Below, piece by piece: positions 54,799-63,935 of a stretch of DNA of 64,000 nucleotides; the first letter of the stretch is position 1, and the number at the start of each line of letters is the position of its first letter. The translations under genes and the position numbers were made by a program. The notes under the pieces are model-generated. The model did not search any database, was not told where the DNA came from, and saw only the letters and a program-made list of their open reading frames with translations. This DNA is from Escherichia coli (GTDB lineage Bacteria; Pseudomonadota; Gammaproteobacteria; Enterobacterales; Enterobacteriaceae), in NCBI RefSeq assembly GCF_009931435.1, contig NZ_CP043414.1; one strand, given 5' to 3'.

Positions 54799-56157
54799 AT
54801 GTTGAGTATTTTTAAACCGGCGCCACACAAAGCGCGCTTACCTGCCGCGGAGATCGATCCGACTTATCGTCGATTGCGCTGGCAAATTTTCCTGGGGATA
54901 TTCTTTGGCTATGCTGCTTACTATTTGGTTCGTAAGAACTTTGCGCTCGCTATGCCTTACCTGGTGGAGCAGGGATTCTCACGCGGTGATTTAGGTTTCG
55001 CGCTTTCTGGGATCTCGATCGCCTATGGATTTTCGAAATTCATCATGGGTTCGGTGTCGGATCGCTCGAATCCGCGCGTTTTCCTCCCCGCAGGTTTGAT
55101 TCTGGCGGCGGCAGTGATGCTGTTTATGGGCTTTGTGCCATGGGCGACATCGAGCATTGCGGTAATGTTTGTACTGTTGTTCCTCTGCGGCTGGTTCCAG
55201 GGGATGGGGTGGCCGCCGTGTGGTCGTACTATGGTGCACTGGTGGTCGCAGAAAGAACGTGGCGGCATTGTGTCGGTGTGGAACTGTGCGCACAACGTCG
55301 GTGGTGGTATTCCGCCGCTGCTGTTCCTGCTGGGGATGGCCTGGTTCAATGACTGGCACGCGGCCCTCTATATGCCCGCTTTCTGCGCCATTCTGGTGGC
55401 ACTATTCGCCTTTGCGATGATGCGCGATACCCCACAATCCTGTGGCTTGCCGCCGATCGAAGAGTACAAAAACGATTATCCGGACGACTATAACGAAAAA
55501 GCGGAACAGGAGCTGACCGCAAAGCAAATTTTCATGCAGTACGTGCTGCCGAACAAACTGCTGTGGTACATCGCCATCGCCAACGTGTTCGTTTATCTGC
55601 TGCGTTACGGCATCCTCGACTGGTCACCGACCTACCTGAAAGAAGTTAAGCATTTCGCGCTGGATAAATCCTCCTGGGCCTACTTCCTTTATGAATATGC
55701 GGGCATTCCGGGCACCCTGTTATGCGGCTGGATGTCGGATAAAGTCTTCCGCGGTAACCGTGGGGCAACCGGCGTCTTCTTTATGACACTGGTGACCATC
55801 GCAACTATCGTTTACTGGATGAACCCGGCGGGCAATCCCAACGTCGATATGATTTGTATGATTGTCATCGGCTTCTTGATCTACGGTCCTGTGATGTTGA
55901 TCGGTCTGCATGCGCTGGAACTGGCACCGAAAAAAGCGGCAGGTACGGCAGCGGGCTTTACCGGTCTGTTTGGTTACCTGGGCGGTTCGGTGGCGGCGAG
56001 CGCGATTGTTGGTTACACCGTGGACTTCTTCGGCTGGGATGGCGGTTTTATGGTAATGATTGGCGGCAGCATCCTGGCGGTTATCCTGTTGATAGTTGTG
56101 ATGATTGGCGAAAAACGTCGCCATCAGGAATTACTGCAAAAACGCAATGGAGGCTAA
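54799..56157 (+). CDS. glpT: Glycerol-3-phosphate:phosphate antiporter GlpT (MFS)
   Basis: 452 aa; GGAGG RBS; 12-TM organophosphate:Pi antiporter. Confidence 0.92.
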
Positions 56158-56161
56158 TGGC

Positions 56162-57238
56162 ATGAAATTGACGCTGAAAAACCTTAGCATGGCGATCATG
56201 ATGAGTGGAATGATCATGGGAAGCAGTGCAATGGCGGCGGATAGCAACGAAAAAATAGTCATCGCCCATCGCGGTGCCAGTGGATATTTACCGGAGCATA
56301 CGCTGCCAGCAAAAGCGATGGCGTATGCGCAGGGGGCAGATTATCTGGAACAGGATTTGGTGATGACCAAAGACGACCATCTGGTTGTTCTGCATGACCA
56401 TTATCTCGATCGTGTTACTGATGTCGCCGATCGTTTCCCGGACAGGGCGCGTAAAGATGGCCGTTACTACGCGATAGATTTTACGCTGGATGAAATTAAG
56501 TCGCTGAAATTTACCGAAGGTTTCGATATTGAAAACGGTAAAAAAGTGCAGACTTATCCGGGGCGTTTCCCGATGGGTAAGTCTGACTTCCGGGTGCACA
56601 CCTTTGAAGAAGAGATTGAATTTGTTCAGGGGTTAAATCACTCTACCGGGAAAAATATCGGTATCTATCCAGAAATTAAAGCGCCGTGGTTCCATCATCA
56701 GGAAGGGAAGGATATTGCGGCAAAAACGCTGGAAGTGCTGAAGAAATATGGTTACACCGGCAAGGACGACAAAGTTTATTTGCAATGTTTTGATGTTGAT
56801 GAACTGAAGCGCATTAAAAATGAGCTGGAACCCAAAATGGGCATGGACCTCAATCTGGTACAGTTGATTGCCTATACCGACTGGAATGAAACGCAGCAGA
56901 AACAGCCGGACGGAAGCTGGGTTAATTACAGCTATGACTGGATGTTCAAGCCGGGCGCTATGAAACAGGTAGCGGAATATGCTGATGGCATTGGTCCGGA
57001 TTACCATATGGTGATTGAGGAGACATCGCAGCCGGGTAATATCAAGCTTACCGGAATGGTAAAAGATGCACAGCAGAATAAGCTGGTGGTGCATCCTTAT
57101 ACCGTGCGGGTCGACAAGCTGCCGGAATATGCCACCGATGTGAATCAGTTGTATGATGCTCTGTATAACAAAGCGGGTGTAAATGGGCTGTTTACTGATT
57201 TCCCTGATAAGGCAGTAAAATTCCTTAATAAAGAGTAA
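56162..57238 (+). CDS. glpQ: Periplasmic glycerophosphodiester phosphodiesterase GlpQ
   Basis: 358 aa from MKLTLKNLSMAIMMSGMIMGSSAMA (signal peptide); HRGASGYLPEHT catalytic motif. Confidence 0.92.
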   Translation: MKLTLKNLSMAIMMSGMIMGSSAMAADSNEKIVIAHRGASGYLPEHTLPAKAMAYAQGADYLEQDLVMTKDDHLVVLHDHYLDRVTDVADRFPDRARKDGRYYAIDFTLDEIKSLKFTEGFDIENGKKVQTYPGRFPMGKSDFRVHTFEEEIEFVQGLNHSTGKNIGIYPEIKAPWFHHQEGKDIAAKTLEVLKKYGYTGKDDKVYLQCFDVDELKRIKNELEPKMGMDLNLVQLIAYTDWNETQQKQPDGSWVNYSYDWMFKPGAMKQVAEYADGIGPDYHMVIEETSQPGNIKLTGMVKDAQQNKLVVHPYTVRVDKLPEYATDVNQLYDALYNKAGVNGLFTDFPDKAVKFLNKE

Positions 57239-57245
57239 TGCTACT

Positions 57246-57274
57246 GCAGGATGGCGTTTATGCGCCATCCTCTG
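57246..57274 (+). terminator. Hairpin just downstream of glpQ
   Basis: ggatggcg / cgccatcc stem with a 6-nt loop, 8 nt after the glpQ stop; no strong T-run. Confidence 0.45.
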
Positions 57275-57457
57275 CTAAAGCGAAATAATGCTACTACCGG
57301 TTATTCTTTTCATTAACGGGTGCATCCTGTAAAAAGATGCCAACATAATTTTCGTAAAACTCATTCGTTAAAAAAGCTAACACTGTGCATTGTTATTCTT
57401 TAAACAGTATGAATAGGTCTCAATAATAAATTGTAATGCAGTTTATACTGTAAAGTA

Positions 57458-58528
57458 TTATTCGAATTTCGGAAAGGTAAAGAAAATATTAATGTATCTT
57501 ATTAATTTATCATATTGTTCTTGGGTGAATGCTGTTTGCACACCTTCAGGGCAATATTTACCAGTAATAACCAGTTGCCCATTGCTGTGTTGTACCATTA
57601 AACCTTCTTTTTCCTTTGGATCTACAAAATTAGAATTATCAAATGTGAAGATATTTTTTTCCTGTTTTGAGTAAGTAAAGAAATCTCGTGTATAGCTGAA
57701 ACTATCATTTATTAATGGTGCTAACTTTTTGTCGGCGATATCGATAAGCTCACCACTTAATTTATTGATGTATTTAATTTGCTTCAATTTTTTCTGCGCT
57801 TGCACAATTTGCTTGTAGGTGTTTTCAATTTTTTTAGAAGAATTCTTAAATACATCATAGCGTTCCTCGGAGGATGTGTATTTGTACCATTCTGTATTTT
57901 TCTCAGAATGTTGTAGCAGGTCTGTATATTTTTTTTGATCGCTGTAAAGTTGACTTTTAATACTTTCCTCACTGCTGATCTTATAATGTTTATCAGAGTT
58001 GTTTGTTTTTGAAATGTCCTTTTCTGTCAGTGTCTGGTCCGTGTTGTGGGTATTTTCTTTTGCAACATGCTCATTGATGATGTTAATTGCAGTTTCATAT
58101 TCATTTAAATTTATTGTTCTTTGTGAAAGAAACCCTTCTTTGCTTTCGATACTCAAAACACCTTCGTTGTTTTCACCTCTGGTAAAGGTAAGGATATAGG
58201 GTTCATAATCTTCTGCAAATTCATTTTTATACGTTATGACATGCTCGACAAAATGTCTTATTGGTACGAAACCATAACTGTGAACGTCAATTTTTTTGGT
58301 CTTGACACTATCAATTTCATCTGAGGCTTTCGTGAAAAAAGCCAATAAATTAGCTATGTTGTCTGCTGAGGTTGATAACCCGAATCTACTTTGAGATATT
58401 TTTAGAAACTCATTGCAAAAAATCTCAAGTTTCGCGGTTTGTTGTGATTCTTTGTAAATTTCTGCTGTTTGCAATTTATTATTTTGTAAAATATTACAGC
58501 GAGATAAGTGAATAGATGTATTTGGCAT
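57458..58528 (-). CDS. Orphan hypothetical protein of about 356 aa, no family recognised; AT-rich, foreign-looking
   Basis: Long uninterrupted ORF in a very AT-rich block; ATG at 58528 preceded by AAGGA at good spacing (the track start at 58564 is a TTG); Lys/Glu/Ser/Asn-rich, no TM segment, no motif I can place. Confidence 0.6.
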   Translation of the reverse strand: MPNTSIHLSRCNILQNNKLQTAEIYKESQQTAKLEIFCNEFLKISQSRFGLSTSADNIANLLAFFTKASDEIDSVKTKKIDVHSYGFVPIRHFVEHVITYKNEFAEDYEPYILTFTRGENNEGVLSIESKEGFLSQRTINLNEYETAINIINEHVAKENTHNTDQTLTEKDISKTNNSDKHYKISSEESIKSQLYSDQKKYTDLLQHSEKNTEWYKYTSSEERYDVFKNSSKKIENTYKQIVQAQKKLKQIKYINKLSGELIDIADKKLAPLINDSFSYTRDFFTYSKQEKNIFTFDNSNFVDPKEKEGLMVQHSNGQLVITGKYCPEGVQTAFTQEQYDKLIRYINIFFTFPKFE

Positions 58529-58993
58529 AAATGATTCCTTGTAGTGTGAGTTAACAAGATACAATTTAATCTTTGCAGAATATATTCACTATCAAATTTA
58601 GCTCATTTTATTACGAAGACCTTTACGCATGTTAGAAAGTATCATTATTGTTAATAAATACGGTAATAAGTAACAAACAGATATTGATAACTTCCCTGAC
58701 AAGTTATTAGGTATCCCACTTGAAGATTGAGAATGGCTCCAGAGTAGACTGTGTACTGTTCGCCGGAGTGTCATTACTCTCAACAATCGGTTTTGACAGT
58801 GAGTCGGGCGCTTCATACCGGTTTCTACCTGGAGTCATTGTCACTTCCCTAATCTGGATAAATATTTATCGCTAATTCACAAAGTGGACCAAAATCAGGT
58901 GAAAACGAATTATTACGCATGGTAAAGACTACAGGCCAACTAAGTGTGGCGAATCAGACAATCTTACATTTGTCATCAATCTCATGTCTCACA

Positions 58994-59212
58994 TCAAATT
59001 TTTCCACTCACCACGAGTTGTTCCGTACACGTTTGTAGTAAAAACAGTGGACTGCCTTCTACCGGCTTTTCTTTAGCCAACAACGAAATCTGTCGATAGA
59101 AGGTTGGTTCGTGAGGAACGGAACACAATTCACCTGCAATGGTTTTCAGCGTTAACTCTGGTAATAAGGCGATGCCTAATCCCTGTCGAATAAAATTCAT
59201 CGCTGTATCCAT
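58994..59212 (-). pseudogene. yfaH: C-terminal fragment of a LysR-type regulator (yfaH-like remnant)
   Basis: 72 aa ORF resembling only the C-terminal effector-domain end of LysR proteins (GLGIALLPELTLK...); no HTH-encoding region upstream. Confidence 0.5.
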
Positions 59213-59415
59213 CTGATTAAATTCACATTTTATTTGCTGGGCGCACTATTAGTGGTAGTGGCTGGTGGAGTCTATGCGCTGCAAATGAAGGGTAAAAGCG
59301 GTGTCGCGCTAGTAGTGGCAAAAGAAATTCATTAATACGACACGTTTCATTAAGATTTTTCGCAGGTAACCACCTATAGTCATTGTCGTTAATAAAAAAT
59401 GACAGGCGATAGGGT

Positions 59416-60066
59416 ATGGCAGTTTCAGCAAAGCACGATGAATTTAATCACTGGTGGGCAACAGAGGGCGACTGGGTTGAAGAGCCTAACTATCGCCGTA
59501 ATGGTATGAGCGGGGTGCAATGCGTCGAGCGCAACGGCAAAAAGCTGTATGTGAAGCGCATGACGCATCATCTGTTTCATTCCGTACGTTATCCGTTCGG
59601 TCGACCGACGATTGTCCGTGAGGTTGCGGTAATTAAAGAGCTGGAACGGGCTGGTGTCATTGTGCCGAAAATCGTTTTTGGTGAAGCGGTGAAAATTGAG
59701 GGTGAATGGCGCGCGTTGCTGGTGACGGAAGATATGGCGGGGTTCATAAGTATTGCTGACTGGTATGCCCAGCATGCAGTAACACCTTATTCTGACGATG
59801 TTCGGCAAGCCATGTTGAAAGCTGTGGCGATGGCGTTTAAGAAAATGCATAGCGTTAATCGTCAGCATGGCTGTTGTTACGTTCGCCACATCTATGTGAA
59901 AACAGAAGGTATGGTAGAAGCTGGTTTTCTTGATCTGGAGAAAAGTCGTCGCCGCTTACGTCGGCATAAAGCGATTAATCATGATTTCCGCCAGCTGGAA
60001 AAATATCTGGAGCCGATCCCTAAAGCGGACTGGGAGCAGGTTAAAGCGTATTACTACGCCATGTAA
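59416..60066 (+). CDS. inaA: Acid-inducible Kdo/WaaP-family kinase-like protein InaA
   Basis: 216 aa ORF with ATG start; recognised as InaA. Confidence 0.88.
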   Translation: MAVSAKHDEFNHWWATEGDWVEEPNYRRNGMSGVQCVERNGKKLYVKRMTHHLFHSVRYPFGRPTIVREVAVIKELERAGVIVPKIVFGEAVKIEGEWRALLVTEDMAGFISIADWYAQHAVTPYSDDVRQAMLKAVAMAFKKMHSVNRQHGCCYVRHIYVKTEGMVEAGFLDLEKSRRRLRRHKAINHDFRQLEKYLEPIPKADWEQVKAYYYAM

Positions 60067-60070
60067 TCAC

Positions 60071-60108
60071 GTAGGCCAGATAAGACGCGTAAGCGTCGCA
60101 TCTGGCAC
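60071..60108. repeat. REP element between convergent inaA and yfaE
   Basis: gtaggccagataagacgcgtaagcgtcgcatctggcac, a REP-consensus-like imperfect palindrome. Confidence 0.6.
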
Positions 60109-60118
60109 AAGTACCCGA

Positions 60119-60373
60119 TCACAACTCGATTTCAATATCGCCTTTTGCCCGGCAACAACAGGGCAAAATTTCCCCCGGCTGAATAAAGGCTAACGGTTCG
60201 GCAATCCAGTCCACCTGGCCTGCAACAAGGCGTGTGCGACAGGAACCGCAGTAACCTTCGCGGCACTGGTACTCAACCGCCACATTGTGGGATTCCAGCG
60301 CCGCCAGAAGGGAAGGGTGTTCATCCTGGCACAGCAGTTGTGTGCCAGTGATGCGCAGGGTAACGCGAGCCAT
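60119..60373 (-). CDS. yfaE: 2Fe-2S ferredoxin YfaE (NrdB diferric-tyrosyl cofactor maintenance)
   Basis: 84 aa; plant-type ferredoxin cysteines (CREGYCGSC ... C); start abuts the nrdB stop. Confidence 0.9.
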   Translation of the reverse strand: MARVTLRITGTQLLCQDEHPSLLAALESHNVAVEYQCREGYCGSCRTRLVAGQVDWIAEPLAFIQPGEILPCCCRAKGDIEIEL

Positions 60374-61503
60374 CAGAGCTGGAAGTTACTTAAATCGTCG
60401 GTGTCCACTTCCGAGTCAATCTGCCCGACCAGATAAGAACTCACTTCCACTTCCTGCGGAGCAACCTGTACGTTATCAGACACCAGCCAGGTGTTGATCC
60501 ACGGGATCGGGTTGGAGCGTGTCTGGAACGGCAGATCCAAACCGACCGCCTGCATACGGATATTGGTGATGTATTCAACGTACTGGCAGAGAATGTCTTT
60601 ATTCAGACCAATCATCGAACCGTCACGGAACAGATAATCCGCCCAGTCTTTCTCTTGCTGTGCCGCCTGGACAAACAGGTCATAGCACTCCTGCTTACAC
60701 TCTTCGGCAATTTCTGCCATTTCCGGATCATCCGCACCGCTGCGCAGCAGATTCAGCATATGCTGCGTACCGGTCAGGTGCAGGGCTTCATCGCGGGCAA
60801 TCAGGCGAATAATCTTGGCGTTACCTTCCATCAGTTCGCGTTCTGCAAAGGCAAAGGAACAAGCAAAGCTGACGTAGAAGCGAATGGCTTCCAGTGCGTT
60901 AACGCTCATCAGGCAGAGATACAGTTTTTTCTTCAGCTCACGTAGGCTAACGGTCACGGTTTTACCGTTGACGGTGTGGGTGCCTTCGCCCAGCAGGTGC
61001 CAGTAGCTGGTCATTTCGATCAGTTCATCGTAATAGCTGGAGATCCCTTCCGCACGTTTCTGGATCTGCTCGTTGGTGACGATATCGTCAAACACAACAG
61101 ACGGATCGTTAACGATATTACGAATGATATGAGTATAGGAACGGGAATGAATTGTTTCTGAGAATGCCCAGGTTTCTACCCAGGTTTCCAGTTCCGGGAT
61201 CGAGATCAGCGGCAGCAGTGCCACGTTCGGGCTGCGACCCTGAATGGAGTCCAGCAACGTCTGATATTTCAGGTTGCTGATAAATATGTGTTTTTCGTGT
61301 TCAGGCAGTGCCTGGTAATCGATACGGTCACGAGAAACGTCAACTTCTTCCGGACGCCAGAAGAAAGAGAGCTGCTTTTCGATCAGCTTTTCGAAGATGT
61401 CATATTTTTGCTGATCGTAGCGAGCCACGTTGACCGGCTGACCAAAGAACATCGGTTCTTTGAGCTGATCATTTTTCGTCTGAGAAAAGGTGGTATATGC
61501 CAT
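60373..61503 (-). CDS. nrdB: Class Ia ribonucleotide reductase beta subunit NrdB
   Basis: 376 aa from [17 protein letters not shown]; the track ORF extends 48 codons upstream into the REP region. Confidence 0.93.
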
Positions 61504-61528
61504 GAATGTGTCCTGTTGGGAGTTTAAT

Positions 61529-61640
61529 GCCGGATAAGGCATTTTACGCCGCATCCTGTGCCTGATGCGACGCTGGCGCGTCTTATCAGGCCTACAAATT
61601 CGAGCCGTAGGCCGGATAAGGCATTTACGCCGCATCCGGC
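61529..61640. repeat. BIME: cluster of three REP elements in the nrdA-nrdB spacer
   Basis: Three REP-consensus copies in alternating orientation (gccggataaggcattttacgccgcatcc; gcctgatgcgacgctggcgcgtcttatcaggcctac; gtaggccggataaggcatttacgccgcatccggc). Confidence 0.7.
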
Positions 61641-61649
61641 ATCTCAATA

Positions 61650-63935
61650 TCAGATTTTACATGCGCCGCTTTCGCAGCCATCGTCCTGGATTGACGGCAC
61701 CAGATCGTCTTGTGCGTCTTCAGCACCGTCACGGGTGTTCTGATAATACAGCGTTTTGACCCCGAATTTGTAGGCGGTGAGCAGGTCTTTCAGCAACTGC
61801 TGCATCGGCACTTTTCCTGACGGGAAGCGTGATGGATCGTAGTTGGTGTTAGCAGAGATCGACTGATCGATAAATTTCTGCATGATACCCACCAGTTGCA
61901 GGTAGCCATCGTTACCCGGCATTTCCCACAGCAGCTCATAGGCGTCGTGCAGATGCTCGTAGTCCGGCACCACCTGGCGCAGAATACCGTCTTTCGACGC
62001 TTTGATGCTGACGTAACCACGCGGCGGTTCAATACCGTTAGTAGCGTTAGAGATCTGCGAAGAAGTCTCTGACGGCATCAGAGCAGAAAGCGTGGAGTTA
62101 CGCAGGCCGTGCGTTTTGATTGACTCACGCAGTGCTTCCCAGTCGTAATGCAGCGGCTCATTAGCGATGGCATCCAGATCTTTCTTATAGGTATCGATCG
62201 GCAGGATCCCTTTCGCGTAAGTGGTTTCGTTAAACCACGGGCACGCGCCTTGCTCTTTCGCCAGCTCATTAGAGGCTTTCAGCAGGTAATACTGAATAGC
62301 TTCGAAGGTTTTATGCGTCAGGTTGTTGGCGCTGCCGTCGGAGTAGCGTTTACCGTGCTTCGCCAGGTAGTAAGCGAAGTTGATCACACCAATACCCAGC
62401 GTACGACGACCCATCGCTCCACGTTTGGCGGCCGGGATCGGGTAATCCTGATAATCCAGCAGCGCGTCGAGTGCGCGTACTGCCAGAATCGCCAGCTCTT
62501 CCAGTTCATCCAGGCTATTAATTGCGCCCAGGTTGAAAGCAGACAGCGTACACAGCGCGATTTCACCGTTCTCGTCGTTGACATCATTCAGCGGTTTGGT
62601 CGGCAGGGCGATTTCCAGGCACAGGTTAGACTGGCGCACTGGCGCGATGGCCGGATCAAACGGGCTATGGGTATTGCAGTGGTCAACGTTCTGAATATAG
62701 ATACGACCGGTAGACGCACGTTCCTGCATCATCAGCGAGAACAGCTCAACGGCTTTCACACGCTGCTTGCGGATGCTGTCGTCTTTCTCATATTTGGTGT
62801 ACAGGCGTTCAAACTCTTCCTGATCGGCGAAGAACGCGTCGTACAGCCCCGGTACGTCGGACGGGCTGAACAGGGTGATATCTTCACCTTTCAGCAGACG
62901 GGTATACATCAGTTTGTTGATTTGTACCCCGTAGTCCATATGACGCACGCGGTTGCCTTCAACCCCACGGTTGTTTTTCAACACCAGCAGGCTTTCCACT
63001 TCCAGATGCCACATAGGGTAGAACAGTGTTGCCGCACCGCCGCGCACACCGCCCTGAGAGCAGGATTTCACTGCCGTCTGGAAATGTTTGTAGAACGGAA
63101 TACAACCGGTGTGGAATGCTTCGCCACCGCGAATCGGGCTACCCAGCGCACGAATACGCCCGGCGTTAATGCCGATCCCGGCACGCTGGGAAACGTATTT
63201 AACAATCGCGCTGGAGGTGGCGTTGATGGAATCCAGGCTGTCGCCGCACTCGATCAGTACGCAGGAGCTGAACTGACGAGTCGGGGTACGCACGCCGGAC
63301 ATGATTGGCGTCGGCAGCGAAATTTTAAATGTGGAAACCGCGTCGTAAAAACGCTTCACGTATTGCAGGCGCGTTTCACGCGGGTAGTTCGAGAACAGGC
63401 ACGCAGCAACCAGAATATAGAGGAACTGGGCGCTCTCATAGATTTCGCCGGTCACGCGGTTCTGTACCAGATATTTGCCTTCCAGCTGCTTAACGGCAGC
63501 ATAAGAGAAGGTCATATCACGGTCGTGATCGATAAACGTGTCCATCTGCTTGAACTCTTCTTCCGTGTAGTCTTCCAGCAGATGATTATCGTATTTGCCC
63601 ATCTCGACCATTTTCACCACGTGGTCGTACAGCGCAGGCGGCTCAAACTGGCCATAGGCTTTTTTACGCAGGTGGAAAATTGCCAGGCGCGCGGCGAGAT
63701 ACTGATAATCCGGCGCATCACGGGAGATCAGGTCTGCGGCAGCCTTGATAATGGTTTCGTGGATGTCAGAGGTCTTGATACCGTCATAAAACTGAATGTG
63801 GGAGCGCAGCTCGACCTGGGAAATCGAAACGTTATGCAGTCCTTCTGCCGCCCAATCCAGAACGCGATGGATTTTGTCGAGATTGATGCGCTCTGTGCTA
63901 CCGTCGCGCTTTGTCACCAGCAGATTCTGATTCAT
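61650..63935 (-). CDS. nrdA: Class Ia ribonucleotide reductase alpha subunit NrdA
   Basis: 761 aa from [26 protein letters not shown] (ATP-cone), C-terminal redox-active cysteine pair. Confidence 0.93.

Follow-up and report, generated by a model that had tools for sequence, protein, structure and literature searches.

An orphan gene was analysed in a 64,000-nt stretch of the Escherichia coli contig NZ_CP043414.1 (assembly GCF_009931435.1), here called the window. The gene, on the minus strand between glpQ and inaA, is a real gene whose reading frame is open far beyond chance. The reading frame was found to be under selection, with weak constraint on the amino acids, and the gene is restricted to E. 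coli. With somewhat better than even confidence, it is regarded as an ordinary fast-evolving E. coli ORFan that encodes a soluble, modular and dispensable protein, probably a partner-binding one, and not a recognisable HEPN RNase.

57458..58528, minus strand: orphan open reading frame (ORF), a 1071-nt coding sequence of 356 aa from the ATG at 58528

Selection on the reading frame

Alleles were translated from the window and from L001-L008, L011 and L012 (11 uninterrupted alleles), together with allele L010, which is interrupted by IS1. All 11 uninterrupted alleles are open over 356 codons, and the L010 allele is open too once IS1 and its 9-bp duplication are taken out. The 356 codons stay open at a GC content of 31%. 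Substitutions were counted as minimal changes relative to the consensus of the 12 alleles. The count gave 134 inferred substitutions, 41 synonymous and 93 nonsynonymous, and not one of them created a stop codon. Random point changes in the ORF make a stop in about 4-5.6% of cases, which corresponds to 5.6-8 expected stops under neutrality and a probability of 3e-4 to 3e-3 of observing none.

A second observation concerns the alleles of O157:H7 strains (L002 and L011). A 1-nt deletion and a 1-nt insertion, seen as gaps at alignment columns 593 and 628, lie 35 nt apart in these alleles, after which the frame is restored. The compensated -1/+1 frameshift recodes about 11 residues (codons 199-209). 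Since the frame is restored, the C-terminal part (residues 211-356) must be translated; the restoration would otherwise be hard to explain. The absence of stops where 5.6-8 were expected, together with the compensated frameshift, therefore places the reading frame under selection.

57901..57936, minus strand: segment read in the other frame in the O157:H7 alleles
57461..57898, minus strand: conserved C-terminal module, residues 211-356 (predicted long helix 221-290, then beta-beta-alpha; ratio of nonsynonymous to synonymous divergence, dN/dS, 0.37)

The constraint on the amino acid sequence is low compared to that of the flanking genes. Mean pairwise dN/dS was 0.6, whereas inaA and glpQ had 0.06 and glpT had 0.005. 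The difference lies in dN, which was 0.048 compared to 0.001-0.007 in the flanking genes; dS was 0.08, compared to 0.08-0.21. A dS on a par with that of the flanks means that the gene has had long enough to decay, and it has resided at its site for the whole diversification of E. coli. Conservation splits the protein in four:

Residues 1-77, variable: dN/dS about 1.07
Residues 78-158, nearly invariant: dN/dS 0.47
Residues 159-210, hypervariable: dN/dS 0.61 (dS 0.21)
Residues 211-356, conserved: dN/dS 0.37

Allelic forms and disrupted copies

The hypervariable part contains a cassette that exists in two allelic forms. Comparison of the window with allele L003 showed that 34 of the 40 nucleotide differences fall within 120 nt (nt 478-598 of the coding sequence), where identity is 74%, and that the remaining 950 nt are 99.4% identical. 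Nucleotide diversity peaks in the cassette at 0.12. Such divergence inside near-identical genes shows that recombination has carried the cassette from one background to another. Around the cassette (residues 159-210) synonymous divergence is far above that of the rest of the gene, which implies that the second form may come from an old or foreign source. That source was not present in any of the databases searched.

57929..58051, minus strand: hypervariable cassette, codons 160-200, two allelic forms 26% divergent in DNA
57758..57766, minus strand: IS1 target AATAAATTA, a 9-bp duplication in one E. coli lineage, uninterrupted in the window

IS1 is inserted after codon 257 in the widespread lineage of L010 (8 of 40 evenly spaced records). 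A separate IS1-associated deletion, found in L013, took the neighbouring LysR gene together with four-fifths of the orphan at its 5' end. The gene is thus dispensable and frequently lost, as it is absent from most genomes and IS1-disrupted or truncated in some lineages.

RefSeq flags many fully open 356-codon alleles as 'frameshifted' pseudogenes. The flags are probably due to a reference protein of the O157 type.

Distribution and genomic context

The 1.6-kb region matched 1052 of 5426 complete E. coli genomes at 90-99% identity. The matches were always chromosomal and almost always single-copy, and the gene was always annotated as 'hypothetical protein'. It is carried by about 19% of E. coli genomes at one fixed site and missing from 81%. 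The protein of the window occurs unchanged on 249 E. coli contigs. K-12 has neither the gene nor OI-97. The locus holds three genes together in O157 and UMN026-type strains and in some others.

57272..58984, no strand: AT-rich islet of 1713 bp, absent from E. coli K-12 as a clean indel

GC content is 30-34% over 57150..58800 and about 50% on either side. The corresponding junction in K-12 lies 9 bp past the yfaH stop codon, just ahead of the glpQ terminator hairpin. Neither a target-site duplication nor terminal repeats were found at the islet ends in the comparison with K-12, and a mobile-element origin of the islet was accordingly not supported.

The surroundings are the nrdA-nrdB-yfaE-inaA ... 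glpQ-glpT-glpABC region of E. coli, and the neighbours of the orphan are glpQ, glpT, a LysR remnant, inaA and nrdAB. The locus is neither a prophage nor an effector island. Over 54799..61500, the flanking core genes (glpT, glpQ, inaA, nrdB) are 94-96% identical to K-12 and 95-99% identical to the carrier strains L001 and L003. Relative to K-12, GlpQ of the window differs in the signal peptide (residues 16-18) and GlpT at the C-terminal tail. In the nrdA-nrdB spacer, at about 61504..61650, the long ORF listed for nrdB begins with an Arg/Cys-rich translation. This resembles read-through of REP-type repeats, and the true nrdB start lies downstream.

Start codon and properties of the product

Two start codons were considered for the orphan. 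The original prediction had preferred the ATG at 58528 to the TTG at 58564, which would give a protein of 368 aa (12 more residues). This preference agrees with a Shine-Dalgarno sequence 7 nt before the ATG and with RefSeq, in which the coding sequence is the same 1071 nt with the ATG start in all genomes fetched. No ribosome-binding site of the AAGGA kind was found upstream of the TTG.

58536..58540, minus strand: Shine-Dalgarno sequence AAGGA, invariant in 12 alleles

The protein has a molecular weight of 41.5 kDa, an isoelectric point of 6.2 and a grand average of hydropathicity of -0.73. It is rich in K (10.7%), E (9.0%), S (8.7%) and N (7.9%), and also in I and T. The highest 19-residue Kyte-Doolittle mean was 0.63, and the protein therefore has no membrane segment or signal peptide. 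The product is predicted to be soluble. Composition and hydropathy thus bear out the earlier description of a hydrophilic, Lys/Glu/Asn-rich protein without hydrophobic segments or signal peptide. The middle section had been expected to be helical, and helices are predicted there at residues 141-160, 177-214 and 221-290 in a low-confidence model.

Homology searches

Profile scans gave nothing credible. The sole Pfam listing was BLOC1S3 at E = 0.51, and the PHROGs listing was phrog_18177 at E = 0.05; both were taken as noise. No match was found in NCBIfam, no PADLOC family at E<=1, and no match in a sequence profile search of the PDB at E<=10.

A search of 5.8 billion proteins returned 23 clusters, all from E. 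coli and 86-91% identical. Exhaustive phmmer against 1.84 billion representatives yielded 12 proteins, and each of these was a fragment, a frameshifted piece or a chimera of this E. coli gene. The orphan had no tblastn match in 50,697 phage records. The sole tblastn match in the plasmid set, NZ_CP141089.1, is a 4.9-Mb E. coli chromosome that PLSDB lists among its plasmids. A contig scan of one genome per species (100,044 species) gave a single match, the 3.5-kb contig L017 (JAIJJM010000334.1); the patterns used were drawn from the N-terminus of the orphan, so that distant relatives would be missed. This contig has the E. coli LysR-orphan arrangement and is binned in a 'Collinsella sp.' metagenome-assembled genome, probably as contamination. 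All homologues were from E. coli, and none below 86% identity was found in any search. The orphan status assigned from the sequence therefore stands, with no family, structure or homologue found outside E. coli.

Predicted structure

AlphaFold2 models were made of the full-length protein and of residues 1-165, with a predicted local distance difference test score (pLDDT) of 45 and 47, respectively. The two models agree in their secondary structure, with helices at 21-49, 55-76, 82-87 and 90-104/107, strands at 112-117, 122-129 and 132-140, and a further helix at 141-160. Beyond this, the full-length model has two long helices (177-214 and 221-290), two strands (311-315 and 318-322) and a last helix at 336-350. 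A pLDDT of about 57-74 was reached by residues 90-160 only.

58049..58261, minus strand: predicted alpha-beta-beta-beta-alpha unit, residues 90-160, the best-predicted and among the best-conserved parts of the protein

Foldseek found nothing in the PDB at E<=0.001 and only the orphan's own family in AFDB50. The fold is not reproducibly predicted, because the models have a template modelling (TM) score of about 0.24 to AlphaFold DB models of their own family. An internal duplication of two helix-plus-beta-beta-beta-alpha halves was considered and rejected (BLASTP E = 5.4, hhalign probability 0.1).

Among the closest known systems are the alpha-beta-beta-beta-alpha fold of SRP9/14 and the COMM domains of COMMD and COMMD-like proteins (PMC13392464). 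In COMMD proteins a C-terminal beta-beta-beta-alpha COMM domain follows a helical HN domain. The orphan was not matched by the Pfam COMM_domain profile, even at E<=10. In the paper on prokaryotic COMMD proteins, E. coli appears in a section heading, with no detail.

Upstream region and a 43-codon ORF

58529..58822, minus strand: conserved upstream region, presumed promoter and 5' leader (within 58523..58822, the least variable part of the islet)
58707..58838, minus strand: 43-codon small ORF MTPGRNRYEAPDSLSKPIVESNDTPANSTQSTLEPFSIFKWDT, preceded by GGGAAG, open in 12 of 12 alleles

Over the 300 nt that precede the start codon, nucleotide diversity was 0.009-0.019, compared to 0.027-0.12 in the coding sequence, with 17 segregating sites, compared to about 10 per 100 nt elsewhere. 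No consensus sigma-70 site was found on the minus strand of this region. The idea of an RNA element in this leader found no support, as there was no Rfam match and no unusual RNA stability (folding z-score -0.8).

The 43-codon ORF lies 178 nt upstream of the orphan. Its product is acidic, belongs to no family and shows 3 amino-acid differences in all across the 12 alleles. It is annotated as WP_001301743.1 in some RefSeq genomes. Homologues were found in E. coli only, and a few assemblies carry frame-shifted versions. The ORF could be a small protein, or a leader or regulatory region for the orphan.

The RHFVEH motif

58241..58258, minus strand: R91-H92-F93-V94-E95-H96, proposed as R-x4-H and also fitting HxxEH, invariant

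The original prediction had pointed to the sequence IRHFVEH, which is present at residues 90-96, as a possible R-x4-H motif of a HEPN RNase with an abortive-infection function. It had called the match weak and prone to chance, and shuffling of the orphan protein agreed with this: R-x4-H occurred in 18% of shuffles, R-x4-6-H in 46% and R[NHD]xxxH in 3%. The same residues can be read as a zincin site; 1.9% of shuffles contained HxxEH, and 3.5% a zincin motif in one orientation or the other. RHFVEH is invariant in all homologues. This invariance is uninformative, since the motif sits in a block (78-158) that hardly varies at all, and no homologue falls below 86% identity.

As a HEPN-type RNase acting as a toxin or in abortive infection, the protein would cut RNA upon infection by phage, with a dimeric helical domain whose catalytic R-x4-H site would be made up of R91 and H96. 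This is considered very unlikely. The motif is present and invariant and fits the stricter R[NHD]xxxH form, but the basic pattern (R-x4-H to R-x4-6-H) turns up by chance in 18-46% of shuffles, and no HEPN/Abi profile of Pfam was matched at E<=10, with none in PADLOC at E<=1 or in NCBIfam. The motif stands at the start of a predicted helix, with about three helices before it; however, this helix (90-104) is modelled as the first element of the alpha-beta-beta-beta-alpha unit and not as part of an all-helical bundle, an argument weakened by the pLDDT of 45-47. No HEPN structure appeared in any fold search with these low-confidence models. The gene is AT-rich, patchy and fast-evolving, like many defence genes, yet it has no partner gene and no defence-island context among the glp, ina and nrd genes that surround it. 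The likeness to known HEPN RNases (AbiD/F, RnlA, HepT, Cas13, Csm6) consists of one R-x4-H hexapeptide at a predicted helix start and a single AT-rich accessory gene; the orphan differs from them in having no profile match, fold match, partner gene or defence context. The HEPN and abortive-infection hint was thus not supported.

A zinc hydrolase is held to be just as improbable. H92-x-x-E95-H96 would here be an inverted zincin site as in family M16 (pitrilysin), with a downstream Glu as third ligand. HFVEH resembles HYLEH of E. coli PtrA and lies at the start of a helix, and the invariant residues E143, E145, E153, H154 and E158 sit 47-62 residues downstream in a predicted helix. The low frequency of HxxEH in shuffles speaks for this reading, but the motif was chosen post hoc. 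Furthermore, no Peptidase_M16 or other peptidase profile was matched in Pfam or NCBIfam, no M16 fold was found among the structure matches, and the domain falls far short of an M16 half-domain in size. The orphan shares the pentapeptide pattern with M16 'inverzincin' metallopeptidases such as PtrA and nothing beyond. A relationship to M16 was rejected at the sequence level by hhalign against the N-terminal domain of PtrA (residues 1-250; probability 0.1).

That one hexapeptide allows two mutually exclusive catalytic readings, neither with homology support, is what would be expected by chance. The HxxEH match alongside R-x4-H illustrates that a six-residue match constrains function little.

Interpretation

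The preferred reading is that of a fast-evolving ORFan with a modular product. The N-terminus of the protein would be polar and lead into a helical region (21-107), followed by the alpha-beta-beta-beta-alpha core (90-160), the hypervariable helical cassette that recombines (160-200) and the long helix 221-290, with a small C-terminal module of beta/alpha type at the end. Function would lie with the conserved modules, and the variable cassette would be the part that is exposed or unconstrained. The protein would most likely act via partner binding or oligomerisation and not via catalysis, which is the least secure part of the reading. It may serve a dispensable, niche-specific function, and very tentatively a conflict-type interaction with phage or host.

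Several points weigh against this reading. The synonymous excess is not significant if transitions are strongly favoured (p = 0.25, kappa = 4), and the first 77 residues show a dN/dS of about 1. Binding instead of catalysis was argued from the absence of profile matches, and the invariant RHFVEH, together with several invariant His, Glu and Asp residues, leaves a catalytic site possible. The structural description rests on models with a pLDDT of 45-47, which also disagree with the AlphaFold DB models of the same family.

The main rival explanation is a relic ORF: an old foreign acquisition, silenced and drifting to loss, that is still open for want of time. It is considered unlikely, though it has several observations on its side. 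dN/dS is 0.6-0.9 and close to 1 in the first 77 residues, the gene is absent from 81% of genomes, and in some strains IS1 has inserted into it or deleted part of it; no promoter was found, and neither literature nor functional annotation was found for the orphan. A want of time is difficult to combine with a dS equal to that of the flanks, which leaves ample time for decay, and with zero stops where 5.6-8 were expected. Drift is also contradicted by residues 78-158 and 211-356, with a dN/dS of 0.37-0.47, and by an upstream region more conserved than neutral sites. The correction of the O157 frameshift 35 nt downstream would be unexpected without selection on the C-terminal half.

Two further explanations involve the cassette. 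In one, thought rather unlikely, the orphan belongs to an unrecognised family and is a single-gene conflict factor (anti-phage or host) with an oligomerising SRP9/14- or COMM-like core and possibly a catalytic RHFVEH. The dimorphic 40-residue cassette would tune its specificity or exposure, and the 26% divergence between the cassette forms would point to an unsampled donor lineage with a distant homologue. In the other, which appears improbable, the protein is an exported type III or flagellar-type substrate, or another exposed protein, and the cassette varies under immune or phage pressure like the middle of flagellin.

The reading as a fast-evolving ORFan fits well with earlier work on this class of genes. 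E. coli ORFans have been found to be AT-richer, with real coding capacity, raised nonsynonymous diversity and normal synonymous diversity (Yu and Stoltzfus 2012, PMC3514957). The orphan is similar to them in species restriction, AT-richness, patchiness, coding capacity and raised nonsynonymous diversity. It is unlike them in its length (356 aa), in its presence in about 19% of strains at one fixed site and not in a single genome, and in its deeply dimorphic cassette.

As it stands, the gene is one more uncharacterised E. coli ORFan and matters little. The false frameshift flags on open alleles in RefSeq can mislead pan-genome studies. The gene could matter more as a clean natural example for the ORFan problem: its long frame has persisted at a dN/dS of about 0.6 throughout the diversification of E. 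coli, a frameshift has been compensated, and the hypervariable cassette has been swapped.
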